The position numbers were made by a program, and so were the translations under genes. A stretch of 23,301 nucleotides of DNA. Origin: a virus. Lineage: Duplodnaviria > Heunggongvirae > Uroviricota > Caudoviricetes. The stretch spans positions 1 to 23,301 of IMG/VR virus record IMGVR_UViG_2531839468_000008; one strand, 5' to 3'. Under the pieces are notes generated by a model. That model saw nothing but the letters and a program-made list of their open reading frames with translations. It was not told where the DNA came from and made no database searches. Below, piece by piece: positions 8,946 through 12,706 of the stretch. Positions within the stretch are counted from its first letter, which is position 1; each line of letters opens with the position of its first letter.

Positions 8946-9142
8946 ATGGGCGTTTTTTACATGTCATTGATGAGTCTCAATAACCTGCCGCCGAGTAGTT
9001 TTTATGCTCTGAATTGTATTTGTGTAGTAAACATGCTGACTGCAATGTAATAGAGTTTTTTTAGCCTGTAACCTCTTGACGGCATTGAATTGCTTTTGTT
9101 ATGAGTTGTAAGCCAATGTTATCATCTTGTATTGGGGTGGTT

Positions 9143-9613
9143 ATGAAGGATGGTGCGCTGCTCAGGAGTTCTTCACTTTTTATTGCCTACATGGGATGCC
9201 TTGGATGGGGGAGTGCTTATTTCTATGGATGGGGTACTTCTTTTTACTACGGCTTCCCATGGTGGATTGTAGGTGCAGGTGTTGATGATGTTGCCAGAAG
9301 TTTATTTTTTGCAGTTATCGTCATTGCTATATTTCTTATCGGTTGGGGTATTGGTGTTGTATTCTTTTTCGCAGTGAAAAGAAAACATTCTATGCAAGAG
9401 CTAAATGTATTTCGCCTTTATTTTGCTGTGGAATTATTGTTTGTGCCGGCAATTATTGAGTTTTCTATATTGAGACAGAAGATTCAGGTACCTCTTTTGC
9501 TACTGTCAGCAGCGATTGCGCTGGCAGTTACAATTTCGATAAGATCTTATGGGCGATTTTTATCGGTATCATGCTTCTATGATAAGCCATTTATAAAAAA
9601 CATTTTTTTGTAG
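9143..9613 (+). CDS. Predicted multi-pass membrane protein of unknown function (Trp/Tyr/Gly/Phe-rich), in an AT-rich island
   Basis: ORF with SD-like GGGGTGG 4 nt upstream of the ATG at 9143; three to four hydrophobic segments (e.g. FFAVIVIAIFLIGWGIGVVFFFAV). The reading frame may continue past 9613 if a homopolymer length is wrong (see findings). Confidence 0.5.
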   Translation: MKDGALLRSSSLFIAYMGCLGWGSAYFYGWGTSFYYGFPWWIVGAGVDDVARSLFFAVIVIAIFLIGWGIGVVFFFAVKRKHSMQELNVFRLYFAVELLFVPAIIEFSILRQKIQVPLLLLSAAIALAVTISIRSYGRFLSVSCFYDKPFIKNIFL

Positions 9614-10288
9614 ATTGTGATGATTGCTTTTGTGGCATATTTCTGGCTTTTTCATTTCTGACAGGATATTACAAACCGCAGTTTAAGAAAGAATATGAAA
9701 TGATTAATTATAATGATGGTTGGTATTATGTTCTTGCTCGTTATGATAATTGTCTGGTTTTGTCTACTTCTTTCAATGCAGGTAGTAAAAGGTTTGTCAT
9801 TTATCAATCAGCACAAGATAAGAATCTTCAGGTTGATATTGTAAGGACCAGAATTTAATCGGCTGCATAAATAATATTTTAAGTTGCAAGTTGGCTATTC
9901 GTAGGAATAGAACCTTAGGCATGCTGAATGCGTTTTCTGAACATTGTTTTATAAACTGTGTCTGCTTGCTGTTGTGATCCTGCTTTTAGTGATGGTGATG
10001 ATGGATTTCACCAGCAGGATAATGTTGGTACTGACTGATGGCGCTCTGGTCTGCGGCATTGTGGTATTGCTGTGGCCGATGATGAAAGAACAGAATGAAT
10101 AATTCTTGACTTTTTTGTTTACTGTTTATTAAAAAATCAACCGCATGGTGAATCCTCCTTGGAGGGGCTAAATGATCGAGTTTTAAGGGCACGTAGCGAG
10201 TTCTGTTTGATCATTGCAGAACTTAGCGGGAGGCGCCATGCGTACATCACTAATGTTATTTCCTTCTATCATTTTCCTTGTGAGTTCT

Positions 10289-10315
10289 GGCTGCGCATGG
10301 CGCGGCCTTTTTTTT
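10289..10315 (+). terminator. Intrinsic terminator upstream of the nanS-like gene
   Basis: 8-bp stem GGCTGCGC / GCGCGGCC (one G·U pair) with a 3-nt loop, followed by eight T residues (10308-10315). Confidence 0.65.
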
Positions 10316-10401
10316 ATGACCTGCCACTGGCAGATGGTCATCCTGTGATTTGATTCCGGTTCCGGCTTTTTAACTCTGTTCCTGTACACGGGAGAAATTC
10401 G

Positions 10402-12339
10402 ATGTCGATTAAACATTATGATGTTGTCAGGGCGGCGTCGCCGTCAGATCTTGCGGAAAAGCTGACACACAAACTGAAAGAGGGCTGGCAGCCGTTTGGT
10501 AGTCCTGTGGCCATAACCCCTTATACCCTGATGCAGGCGATTGCCGCGGAGGGGGATGTGACCACGCCAGTGGTTGTGCCCGGCACGGGGGATGGTGGCT
10601 ATCCGGGAGTGGTCACCACGGAGCCAGATTATTACTACGTTATTCCACTGGCCGGGCAGTCGAACGGCATGGCTTACGGTGAGGGGCTTCCTCTGCCGCA
10701 GACATATGACCGTCCTGACCCGCGTATAAAGCAACTGGCTCGTCGCAGCACAGTGACGCCGGATGGCGCTCCCTGTAAATATAACGACATTATTCCGGCA
10801 GACCACTGTCTGCATGATGTACAGGACATGAGCCGTCTTAACCATCCGAAAGCTGACCTGTCGAAAGGTCAGTACGGAACCGTGGGGCAGGGGCTGCATA
10901 TTGCCAAAAAGCTGCTGCCGTTTATACCGGCGAATGCGGGTATTCTTCTGGTTCCGTGCTGCCGTGGTGGTTCAGCTTTCACCACCGGGGCAGATGGAAC
11001 ATACAGTGACGTGACCGGTGCCTCAGAGAGTTCTACCCGCTGGGGTGTGGGCAGGCCGCTGTATAAGGATCTCATCGGTCGTACAAAAGCCGCGCTGGCA
11101 AAGAACCCGAAAAATGTGCTGCTTGCCGTGGTGTGGATGCAGGGGGAATTTGACTTTGACGGAACGCCAGCAAATCACACAGCCCGTTTTACAGAAGTAG
11201 TGGAACAATATCGTACGGACCTTGCAGATATGGTGGGACAGTGCGCTGGTGGTTCTGCTGACGGTGTTCCCTGGATATGTGGAGACACAACTTATTTCTG
11301 GAAGCAGAAGAGCGAATCCACTTACCAGACGGTGTACGGCAGTTACAAAAACAAAACGGAAAAGAATATTCACTTTGTGCCGTTCATGACCGATGAGAAC
11401 GGAGCAAATGTCCCGACGAACAAACCGGAAGAAGACCCGGATATTCCGGCATCAGGATATTACGGTGCGGCCTCCCGGACGTCGGCAAACTGGACGTCAG
11501 CAGACCGTGCGAGCCATTTCAGCTCATGGGCACGCAGGGGGATTATTTCTGACCGTCTTGCCTCAGCGATTCTTCTCCATGCAGGACGGACGGCTGAACT
11601 GGTGGGTGGGGAACAGGTTGTGATGCCGCCGGATGAGAAGCCGTCACCGGACACACCATCAACACCGTCAACGGACGGGAAATCAGTGACAACGCTGCTT
11701 TATTACCGTGCAACAGAGTCAGGTGGTTTACTGAATCCGCAGGGATGGGGAGCTGAAGGAGGGCGTGCATTGGTAGTTGATGATGCAGGTGCTGCAGGAG
11801 GTAAGGCGCTGAGGTGGACCAAACAGACAGGAAGTTCCTCGTGGTTTATGCAGCATGATGTCGGTAATGGCGCAGACCTGCTGGAGAAGGGCGGGCTTAT
11901 CAGTTGTCGTTTTAAAGTTGATGGCACACTGACAGCTAATCAGTACGCACTGGCGCTGTACTGGCCGGTTTCTTCACTGCCTCAGGGCGTCACACTGGAA
12001 GGTAATGCCGGTCATAACCTGCTGGCGTCGTTTTACGTACAGAGCGATGCCACAGACCTTAATGTGATGTACCACAAGGGAAATGCTGGTCAGAACACGA
12101 AGCTGGGGTCATTCGGCGCATTTGATAACGAATGGCATACGCTGGGCTTCCGTTTTGCCGGTAACAACAGTATTGAGGTGACGCCGGTCATTGATGGTAA
12201 GGACGGGACGCCGTTCATGCTGTCACAGTCACCGGTCGGCACGTTTACGGCAGACAAATTGCGCGTGACCGATATCACTAGCGGTGCGACATATCCGGTG
12301 CTGATTGAAAGTATAACAGTGGAAGTGAATAACCCGTAA
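10402..12339 (+). CDS. nanS: Prophage NanS-like sialate O-acetylesterase (N-terminal DUF1737-like domain plus SGNH/SASA hydrolase domain), 645 aa
   Basis: Translation begins MSIKHYDVVRAASPSDLAEKLTHKLKEGWQPFGSPVAITPYTLMQAIAA…, the conserved N terminus of prophage NanS-p proteins; SD GGGAG is upstream of the ATG. Size and position (between Q and the lysis genes) agree with that family. Confidence 0.8.
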   Translation: MSIKHYDVVRAASPSDLAEKLTHKLKEGWQPFGSPVAITPYTLMQAIAAEGDVTTPVVVPGTGDGGYPGVVTTEPDYYYVIPLAGQSNGMAYGEGLPLPQTYDRPDPRIKQLARRSTVTPDGAPCKYNDIIPADHCLHDVQDMSRLNHPKADLSKGQYGTVGQGLHIAKKLLPFIPANAGILLVPCCRGGSAFTTGADGTYSDVTGASESSTRWGVGRPLYKDLIGRTKAALAKNPKNVLLAVVWMQGEFDFDGTPANHTARFTEVVEQYRTDLADMVGQCAGGSADGVPWICGDTTYFWKQKSESTYQTVYGSYKNKTEKNIHFVPFMTDENGANVPTNKPEEDPDIPASGYYGAASRTSANWTSADRASHFSSWARRGIISDRLASAILLHAGRTAELVGGEQVVMPPDEKPSPDTPSTPSTDGKSVTTLLYYRATESGGLLNPQGWGAEGGRALVVDDAGAAGGKALRWTKQTGSSSWFMQHDVGNGADLLEKGGLISCRFKVDGTLTANQYALALYWPVSSLPQGVTLEGNAGHNLLASFYVQSDATDLNVMYHKGNAGQNTKLGSFGAFDNEWHTLGFRFAGNNSIEVTPVIDGKDGTPFMLSQSPVGTFTADKLRVTDITSGATYPVLIESITVEVNNP

Positions 12340-12486
12340 GCAGGAAAAAAAGGCCGCCGGGGCAGGGAAAACAAGGAGCCAGAACCGGCGGCAAATGTCG
12401 TTATATCCAAAGCAAAACATGCAGGACACTTTTTTAACCAACAGGTATTAACGATGTCAACACCATATCAATAACCGGGAGGGATA

Positions 12487-12669
12487 ATGAGATTTGTACA
12501 GCTTATTTTATTGTATTTCTGCACGGTGGTGTGCACGTTATATCTGGTAAGTGGCGGGTATAAGGTTATCCGGAACTATATACGCAAAAAGATTGATGCC
12601 GCGGCGGCGGAAAAAATCAGCGCCAGCCAGTCAGCCGGAACAAAACCCGAAGAGCCTCTCATTTCGTAG
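12487..12669 (+). CDS. Small single-pass membrane protein (60 aa), hypothetical
   Basis: Strong SD GGGAGGG at 12477-12483 before the ATG at 12487; N-terminal hydrophobic helix LILLYFCTVVCTLYLV followed by a basic segment. Confidence 0.4.
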   Translation: MRFVQLILLYFCTVVCTLYLVSGGYKVIRNYIRKKIDAAAAEKISASQSAGTKPEEPLIS

Positions 12670-12706
12670 CAACTTTCTTAACAACACCTTTCAACGAGAA
12701 AATCCT

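Follow-up and report, generated by a model that had tools for sequence, protein, structure and literature searches.

What does a lambdoid prophage carry between its Q gene and nanS, in the slot where Shiga toxin (Stx) phages carry stx, when neither a toxin nor a tRNA gene is found there? The question is raised by the 23,301-nucleotide (nt) virus record IMGVR_UViG_2531839468_000008 (Caudoviricetes; hereinafter "the window", meaning the whole stretch analyzed), whose segment 8951-10400 has a GC content of 38.9% versus 52.0% across the rest of the window, a composition unlike that of the flanking phage genes. When the GC content is followed in 300-nt steps, it drops from about 50% to 31-42% over approximately 8850-10200 and climbs to 54-59% inside nanS. 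An initial annotation, made from the sequence alone, had already pointed to this AT-rich island between Q/pR' and nanS and considered it as cargo in the stx slot, devoid of tRNA and toxin genes. This description is confirmed: no tRNA genes were found within the window and no toxin domain among the tested open reading frames (ORFs) of the island or in NanS, so that cargo of the Stx-type AB5 or tRNA kind is absent from them, and the island, foreign in its base composition, is cargo (a "moron" cassette) placed in the Q-to-lysis slot of a lambdoid prophage, in the position of stx. As to its content, we suggest, with a probability that we estimate at about 0.85, that the segment 8951-10400 represents one copy of a known three-gene lambdoid cargo cassette, formed by a broken gene of the STM1630 family, a DUF3927/TciB-like gene and the gene of the small RNA (sRNA) PasD1.

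The comparison with annotated phages and prophages supports this idea. Positions 8870-10400 are 98.6% identical to phage 2B8 over their full length, and phage 434 matches the window at 98.4% identity from about position 8999 on. In the curated 434 record (OL657226.1) the match falls in the "approximate region of 434B nonhomology", where the annotated order is gp68 (putative membrane protein, 247 amino acids (aa)), gp69 (TciB), gp70 (62 aa), a terminator and a SASA esterase. The enteropathogenic Escherichia coli (EPEC) strain E2348/69 harbors two copies of the cassette, one in prophage PP2 (in the order LpxR, YlcG, a Q82-type Q, the cassette with E2348C_0686, E2348C_0687 and pasD2, nanS, holin) and the other in prophage PP4 (a lambda-type Q, the cassette with E2348C_1012, the DUF3927 gene and pasD1, holin). 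The cassettes of 434, PP2 and PP4 embed the same three genes in the same order, share 98-100% DNA identity with the window and are placed as here, between Q/pR' and nanS or the holin gene; however, their membrane-protein gene is intact whereas the window copy is broken, and 434 and PP2 differ further from the window in having a Q82-type Q, LpxR upstream, a strong terminator ahead of the cassette and a PasD2-type allele. Nothing in the island is new, since the cassette is annotated in a classical phage, its RNA has been published and validated in E2348/69 (PMC8550237) and both of its proteins belong to named families. The annotated presence of the same island in a characterised phage is one of the findings that the initial annotation had itself named as a refutation.

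The cassette segment, at a coverage of at least 80%, was detected in 682 of the 5,426 complete E. coli genomes, and the cassette is also carried by many prophages of EPEC and enterohemorrhagic E. coli (EHEC). The comparison within IMG/VR was carried out on 80 prophage loci encoding a 99-100% identical membrane protein; about 70 of these have all three genes in company, a lambda-type Q is present in 49 and a Q82-type Q (nearly always accompanied by LpxR) in the remaining 31, and nanS may be present or absent. Since the genes travel together and are attached to differing Q types, the cassette can be regarded as a discrete module recombining between late-region backbones. The window itself is one such recombinant, in which a lambda-type Q and a PasD1 allele of the PP4 type are joined to nanS, as in PP2 and 434. 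The cassette resembles the morons known from lambdoid phages (bor and lom of lambda, gp15 of HK97) and the cargo of the stx slot in its foreign GC content, in its own terminator, in its place in or near the late operon and, probably, in having a promoter of its own, and in E2348/69 it is likewise expressed from the repressed prophage; unlike them, it carries two small membrane proteins and a regulatory RNA, and no toxin, tRNA or characterised exclusion protein. A 3-kb contig labelled "MAG: Veillonella sp." also contains the E. coli cassette, with 100% protein identity that extends to the lambda-type Q, and is almost certainly a binning contaminant.

The element of the cassette to which a demonstrated activity can be assigned, by virtue of an identical RNA in E2348/69, is pasD1 (10143-10315, plus strand), a 173-nt gene for an Hfq-dependent, trans-acting sRNA. 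The window sequence coincides at every position (100%) with PasD1 of E2348/69, which spans positions 1060260-1060432 of NC_011601 (173 nt), PasD2 being located at 741157-741328 of the same genome (PMC8550237). In that strain PasD1 was validated by Northern analysis and found to be abundant, with an Hfq-dependent accumulation, and both the probe and the predicted seed were published (Pearl Mizrahi et al. 2021, PMC8550237). The probe matches the window exactly at 10276-10299, and the seed UGUGAG is found at 10279-10284. In the predicted fold, the 5' part forms a long stem, the U-rich region with the seed stays unpaired, and the terminator hairpin runs into U8; the seed is unpaired in the centroid fold, and four of its six bases are weakly paired in the minimum-energy fold. 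According to RIL-seq (ligation of interacting RNAs, then sequencing) in EPEC, the partners of PasD1 include aceE, uspA, gltI, yhdW, spr and coaE, as well as the virulence mRNAs tir, cesF, bfpB and perB, and its targets share a CUCACA motif complementary to the UGUGAG seed (PMC8550237).

In a permissive Rfam scan, positions 10113-10318 matched the full model (1-206) of STnc100 (RF02076) with 37.7 bits (E 3.3e-6). No match was obtained at the gathering thresholds and, since 37.7 bits fall below the STnc100 gathering score of 47 bits, the window RNA is a relative of STnc100 and not a member of it on that basis. PasD1 and PasD2 have been described as structural relatives of STnc100 (Zhu, Shabalina and Storz 2026 preprint); the same authors reported that more than 98% of the PasD copies have Q and LpxR within 10 kb, that a PasD variant occurs in two sequenced phages and that STnc100 and PasD have different seeds. 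The position of STnc100 in Stx2 phages is the same as that of PasD1 here. Indeed, STnc100 sits 75 nt downstream of stx2B (PMC12370729), which corresponds to the place of PasD1 just before nanS, 86 nt upstream of which it ends, and this parallel fits the assignment of the island to the moron slot. The published PasD RNAs, including the EHEC homologue EcOnc13, have the same seed, terminator and prophage position as the window RNA.

The published RIL-seq tables connect PasD2 with the lpxR mRNA from the prophage that encodes it (lpxR at 737820-738779 in PP2), at the site CUCACAAG, and PasA is linked to the mRNA of the cassette membrane protein (E2348C_0686, 740156-740872 in PP2), at a site equivalent to window 9276-9306. 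These two links suggest a regulation within the prophage. PasA itself is absent from the window, including the region beyond nanS where PP2 harbors it.

PasD1 ends with an intrinsic terminator (10289-10315, plus strand) made up of a stem-loop at 10289-10307 and of U8 at 10308-10315; its 8-bp stem contains seven G-C pairs and is followed by T8 (-16.0 kcal/mol, z -3.4). The initial annotation had correctly recognized a strong terminator at these positions, had taken it as the end of the island and had missed the sRNA gene to which it belongs. The scan of 8700-10600 returned no other terminator-like site, none was found at 9020-9068 or elsewhere between pR' and 10289, and 10289-10315 is predicted to be the first strong terminator downstream of pR' in the window. 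The identity to PasD1 also implies that the ORFs lying in 10159-10353 (corresponding to 434 gp70), as well as an antisense ORF annotated in RefSeq, cover an RNA gene. The frames overlapping the PasD gene are 434 gp70 (4162-4350 of the 434 locus, L001), WP_012578864.1 (2801-3199 of locus L019, minus strand) and the window ORFs 10159-10353 and 10183-10416; gp70 and WP_012578864.1, annotated as "putative membrane protein" or "hypothetical protein", are probably not real genes. We had considered the possibility that a third ORF encoded a lipoprotein, given that the 36-64-aa ORFs of 10159-10353 contain the signal-peptide-like sequence MRTSLMLFPSIIFLVSSGC, and rejected it: a 1-bp indel breaks the conservation of the gp70-type frame between 434, 2B8 and the window, the "lipobox" is encoded by the terminator hairpin, and this region is the PasD gene.

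Of the several sub-60-aa ORFs noticed initially, the one at 9944-10102 (plus strand) is a real conserved gene, which starts with TTG and encodes a tciB-like protein of 52 aa with two hydrophobic segments (residues 5-21 and 26-42). This protein matches Pfam DUF3927 (PF13064; E 3.4e-14; score 53 bits, cut-off 25) and PHROG 1470, and is 42% identical over its full length to TciB of phage P1 (E 6e-12), which in turn gives a strong DUF3927 match and shares with it both the domain and the two hydrophobic segments. Its counterparts are named "TciB" in 434 and "DUF3927 family protein" in RefSeq. In P1, where tciB is non-essential, it follows the TerB-like gene tciA in the order tciA-tciB-tciC, and P1 TciA matches Pfam TerB; in contrast, the cassette has no such gene, no TerB-like ORF being found in 8950-10400, and the linkage to TciA is not observed here. 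The hypothesis that DUF3927 is an obligate partner of the STM1630 family was also rejected: the DUF3927 gene is confined to the 434-type cassette, no other setting of the family containing it, and therefore the two proteins are not obligate partners.

Gene 1 is the disrupted gene for an inner-membrane protein of the STM1630 family (9143-9858, plus strand), its N-terminal fragment being the ORF 9143-9613 and the stop codon of its remnant lying at 9856-9858. The initial annotation had read 9143-9613 as a Trp/Tyr/Gly/Phe-rich multi-pass membrane protein. The composition holds, as W, Y, F and G account for 22 of the first 50 residues, whereas the gene is incomplete: the ORF corresponds to the first 152 residues of a 238-aa protein plus four frameshifted codons (156 aa in total), the ORF 9700-9858 is part of the displaced C-terminus, and tblastn recovers the gene as two pieces in two frames. 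The alignment with 434 places three 1-bp indels in a 58-bp stretch (9595-9652, plus strand). A run of seven A in 434 is reduced to six here (9595-9600), an extra T is present at 9611, which jointly with the A deletion creates an in-frame TAG (9611-9613), and a run of six T is reduced to five (9648-9652). The frame of about 238 codons is thus interrupted in the window by the TAG at 9611-9613 and by the frameshift at 9648-9652, whereas in 434 and 2B8 the frame from the equivalent of 9143 runs for 238 codons. Once the three indels are undone, the product is 238 aa long and identical to 434 gp68 at 238 of 238 positions; therefore, the damage is either very recent or a sequencing artefact. As it stands, the gene can give a product of no more than 156 aa, without the fifth helix and the beta domain described below.

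The gene is intact in 434, 2B8, PP2 and PP4 of E2348/69 and the 80 IMG/VR loci. For the version of a 111-nt segment found in the window, the best value among the 5,426 complete E. coli genomes was 98.2%, so that 99% identity was not reached in any of them, and in an evenly spaced sample of the 682 carriers about half of the rows were 112-nt matches at 97.3%, as predicted for the intact version, with additional 112-nt rows having lower scores; the share of intact copies rests on these sampled segment matches and on the 80 intact IMG/VR loci. The A6 frameshift is present in CP148289, where it is flagged by the Prokaryotic Genome Annotation Pipeline (PGAP). Furthermore, PHROGs contains separate families built from gene 1 fragments, one of which, of 158 positions, matches residues 1-157, and broken copies of gene 1 are therefore common in deposited phage records.

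Even though no recognisable motif had been attributed to this protein at first, it belongs to a named family. The search retrieved 108 homologues, each with the precomputed Pfam label PF27470 ("TfpB"); the membership of the window gene is read from these labels and from its full-length similarity to family members. The family has a constant length of about 237-238 aa and an identity to the query of 45-68%, and it occurs in E. coli, E. albertii, Citrobacter, Cronobacter, Klebsiella, Enterobacter, Salmonella and Yersinia. The alignment contains 42 invariant columns, concentrated in the N-terminal motif A-Y-x-G-x-x-G-W-G-S-A-Y-F-Y-G-W-G-x-S-x-Y-Y-G-F-P-W-W. When 1.84 billion representative proteins were searched exhaustively with a profile, only 72 clusters were retrieved at E <= 0.001, about 17 of which are distant full-length relatives, and a genome scan revealed a 33%-identical relative in Haemophilus ducreyi. 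For the intact membrane protein, Pfam and NCBIfam contained no meaningful hit (DUF4501, E 0.21, and CrgA, E 0.39, ranked highest); PHROGs returned only families of unknown function, some of which are fragments of gene 1 itself, and the PADLOC defence models no match at E <= 1 for either protein. The literature searches for the name "TfpB" led only to chemicals and to type IV pilus proteins, the latter seemingly not 238-aa membrane proteins of this kind; the name may go back to the Moraxella tfpB ORF or to "toxin-flanking protein".

A structure model built from the close homologues alone was poor, with a predicted local distance difference test (pLDDT) score of 58.6. The addition of the distant relatives raised it to 80.9, with a predicted template modelling (pTM) score of 0.74. 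The helices of this model cover residues 10-36, 47-78, 89-111, 116-139 and 155-181 and are followed by a five-stranded beta domain (184-235); the fold search performed with the confident model gave no fold match. Since hydropathy and loop charges agree, we infer five membrane spans, an N-terminus on the inside, and an outer location of both the conserved aromatic loop and the beta domain.

Some copies are called "STM1630 family protein" in RefSeq. The Salmonella homologue in our set (P0074; 238 aa, 46% identity over the full length) can be equated with STM1630 because a published deletion primer encodes its residues NSSMLLAYLGGLGWG. Like gene 1, STM1630 is AT-rich, horizontally acquired and expressed on its own; unlike gene 1, it is chromosomal, lying between steB and sseJ and not in a prophage late region, and it has neither a DUF3927 nor a PasD neighbour. 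It is co-regulated with the virulence genes of Salmonella pathogenicity island 2 (SPI-2) (PMC2639726) and was chosen for macrophage-infection tests from RNA sequencing data (PMC6785131). Attenuation of its mutants has been reported both for calves and for chickens (PMC6785131, S1 Text), its deletion did not affect growth in LB, a reduced macrophage replication was observed only in the STM2475 mutant, and its promoter is inactivated in ST313 strains (PMC6785131). One deletion screen assigned a hypermotile phenotype to STM1630 (PMC4219756), and follow-up work raised the possibility that the resistance cassette, through polar effects, had caused part of the phenotypes of this screen (PMC4534456).

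Members of the family are also found in other surroundings. On plasmid contigs of enterotoxigenic E. coli (ETEC), a 59%-identical family gene lies beside eltAB, in divergent orientation and about 870 bp from eltA; it keeps the TTGAC/TG-extended promoter described below, and the region is flanked by insertion sequence (IS) elements and the STb gene. Its appearance as a remnant of a prophage late-region cargo slot hints that LT-I was once carried in such a slot. The family gene adjoins lpxR in Citrobacter rodentium; at the same chromosomal site (frmRA/MCP/LysR), Salmonella has sseJ. In other prophages the order is Q, DNA methylase, family gene, lpxR (minus strand), in some cases pmrD, and nanS, and in 434 and PP2 of E2348/69 lpxR is found directly upstream of Q. 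On ExPEC (extraintestinal pathogenic E. coli) chromosomes the family gene adjoins iroB/iroC and a Bor/Iss homologue.

A further question concerns the signals from which the cassette might be expressed. The possible promoter of the membrane-protein gene proposed initially (TTGACG at 9076-9081, with a -10 near 9099-9105) gains support from conservation. This probable promoter (9076-9105, plus strand) is formed by the -35 TTGACG (9076-9081), a TG (9097-9098) and a -10-like TATGAG (9100-9105). TTGA is invariant across seven diverged upstream regions; in six loci of the E. coli lineage whose surroundings have diverged, the start codon is preceded at 66-70 nt by TTGAC, which is followed, 17-18 nt downstream, by a TG-extended TGnTA(t/a)(t/g) -10-like element. 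These loci include the ETEC plasmid and ExPEC island copies, with no phage promoter nearby, and the element 9076-9105 probably acts as an autonomous promoter of the membrane-protein gene. A probable promoter for PasD1 (10106-10135, plus strand) was identified by its match to the consensus, with a -35 TTGACT (10106-10111), an 18-nt spacer and a -10 TAAAAA (10130-10135) ending 7 nt ahead of the published PasD1 5' end; the promoter scan did not report it, the -10 having a base other than T in its sixth place.

The region ahead of the cassette is less uniform. Positions 8985-9005 are the counterpart of a strong terminator of 434, degenerate here. Indeed, the hairpin of 434 (2979-3007 of L001) has a free energy of -13.3 kcal/mol (z -3.8) and is called as a terminator by the scan, whereas its counterpart in the window has -2.2 kcal/mol (z -0.3) and is not called. 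The terminator is likewise decayed in 2B8 and in the PP4 lineage. Since its strength differs, the carriers probably differ in the entry of pR' transcripts in the absence of Q.

The read counts available for uninduced E2348/69 (PMC8550237 Table S2) are informative in this respect. In PP4, which has no nanS between cassette and holin, there were 6 reads for Q, 147 for the membrane-protein gene, 8,652 for pasD1 and 5 for the holin gene; in PP2, there were 69 for Q, 226 for the membrane-protein gene, 37 for tciB, 11,017 for pasD2, 102 for nanS and 3.5 for the holin gene. According to these counts, the repressed prophages of E2348/69 express the cassette, and by the lysis genes transcription has fallen back to a low level. 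In a lysogen of the window prophage, the cassette would be transcribed from its own promoters at 9076-9105 and 10106-10135; constitutive pR' transcripts might also enter it, no terminator lying between in this copy, and the PasD1 terminator would halt such transcription ahead of nanS and the lysis genes. Once the prophage is induced, RNA polymerase modified by Q would read through the PasD1 terminator, which would be the first barrier met on its way to nanS and the lysis genes. PasD1 would act in trans, with Hfq, on mRNAs bearing CUCACA, as in EPEC.

Several points weigh against this reading and have to be considered together with the alternatives. The expression, the Hfq dependence and the targets of PasD1 are all carried over from an identical RNA of another strain, and the read-through of pR' transcripts and the role of Q are drawn from lambda biology. 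In 434 a good terminator stands ahead of the cassette, so the wiring varies among carriers. The PasD1 promoter is a consensus match, identical in five of five copies, so that conservation cannot test it, and the 5' end of the RNA could come from processing. One might accordingly suppose that PasD1 has no promoter of its own and is what processing and protection by Hfq leave of the 3' end of a long transcript starting from pR' or from the membrane-protein promoter. The lack of a terminator between pR' and 10289 in the window would be consistent with such an origin, as would the failure of 10106-10135 to pass the promoter scan and the mature 5' end of the related PasA, which is thought to be made by cleavage (Zhu et al. 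2026 preprint). However, the pasD counts of E2348/69 are 40-300 times those of the upstream genes, the TTGACT -35 is correctly spaced from the published 5' end, and in 434 and PP2 the cassette is preceded by a terminator, yet PasD2 is equally abundant; in our opinion, an origin by processing alone is quite improbable. The clustering of the three 1-bp indels inside 58 bp of AT-rich sequence, where two of them are changes in the length of an A or T run, also speaks against a genuinely broken gene 1. If they were errors of sequencing or assembly, gene 1 would be intact in the real genome and the cassette fully functional, and both the lack of any amino-acid difference between the repaired product and gp68 and the absence of this exact configuration from all 5,426 complete genomes would be easily explained. 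Nevertheless, the T inserted at 9611 extends no homopolymer, the A6 variant is seen in independent complete genomes marked as frameshifted by PGAP, and the fragment families of PHROGs reveal that broken copies are common in phage records; we consider such errors an unlikely explanation.

It was also proposed initially that the membrane protein might be active cargo, that is, a superinfection-exclusion, abortive-infection, immunity or envelope-modifying factor. Some data might be read in this sense: the protein is conserved and expressed from repressed prophages like the known exclusion morons, the family adjoins envelope and virulence genes (lpxR, pmrD, bor, sseJ and eltAB), and STM1630 is co-regulated with SPI-2 (PMC2639726) and its mutants are attenuated in calves and chickens (PMC6785131). 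On the other hand, the window gene is cut at residue 156 of 238, with loss of the last helix and of the beta domain, the protein has no functional match in PADLOC, Pfam or NCBIfam and no fold match, and the STM1630 deletion grows normally in LB, with macrophage replication reduced only for the STM2475 mutant (PMC6785131). A role in exclusion, abortive infection or immunity is thus unsupported, and the whole proposal appears very doubtful for this copy. We may speculate, at comparably long odds, that the STM1630-family protein is an envelope factor travelling and working with virulence cargo, for instance by modulating the deacylation of lipid A by LpxR or the release of toxins or vesicles. If this were true, the pairing of PasD with lpxR mRNA and of PasA with the mRNA of the cassette's own gene would represent a small self-contained regulatory circuit. 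The cassette of a broken STM1630-family gene, a DUF3927/TciB-like gene and PasD1 remains the reading that we prefer.

As regards the neighbours of the island, the upstream one is a lambda-type Q gene (8240-8863, 207 aa), followed by the late promoter pR' (8906-8934, plus strand), which belongs to the context outside the cassette. The promoter was located by reading the sequence and by its match to annotated phages; it comprises the -35 TTGACT (8906-8911), a 17-nt spacer and the -10 GAAACT (8929-8934), with a qut-like stretch up to about 8950, and we take it to be pR' by comparison with the lambda pR' sequence. Positions 8870-8943/8950 are 90-92% identical to HK97, HK022 and mEp phages, whose records annotate a "promoter" and a "Qut site" in the matching stretch; this similarity ends at about 8943-8950, in agreement with the earlier remark that the resemblance to lambda stops after pR'. 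The left edge and leader of the cassette (8951-9075, plus strand) were defined by the alignment with 434, whose similarity begins at about 8985-8999 in window coordinates. The right-hand neighbour is a nanS-type esterase gene (10402-12339, plus strand; 645 aa) with the Pfam domains DUF1737, SASA and DUF6645, whose equivalent in 434 and E2348/69 is labelled "SASA family carbohydrate esterase". From nanS to the holin gene (12340-12700) the window is unlike PP2 of E2348/69; the 60-aa ORF that follows nanS (12487-12669) is a candidate match to the 60-61-aa DUF1378 genes found after nanS in other prophages. The whole 23.3-kb window occurs in no complete E. coli genome of the collection, the best case being a dog isolate (80% coverage, 97.8% identity), and the window prophage is a mosaic without a counterpart among these genomes.

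These findings have consequences for the way in which such regions are annotated and studied. A 170-aa "membrane protein" annotated here would be a pseudogene fragment, the ORFs after 10102, including 434 gp70 and WP_012578864.1, are annotations lying on a validated sRNA gene, and the broken copy of gene 1 makes the window a poor place to study the function of the membrane protein. The STM1630 family and DUF3927 are widespread in prophages and virulence islands of pathogens. The only experimentally backed element of the window cassette is a riboregulator that in EPEC contacts both core and virulence mRNAs; prophages of this type may change their host by means of an RNA, and not of a toxin.

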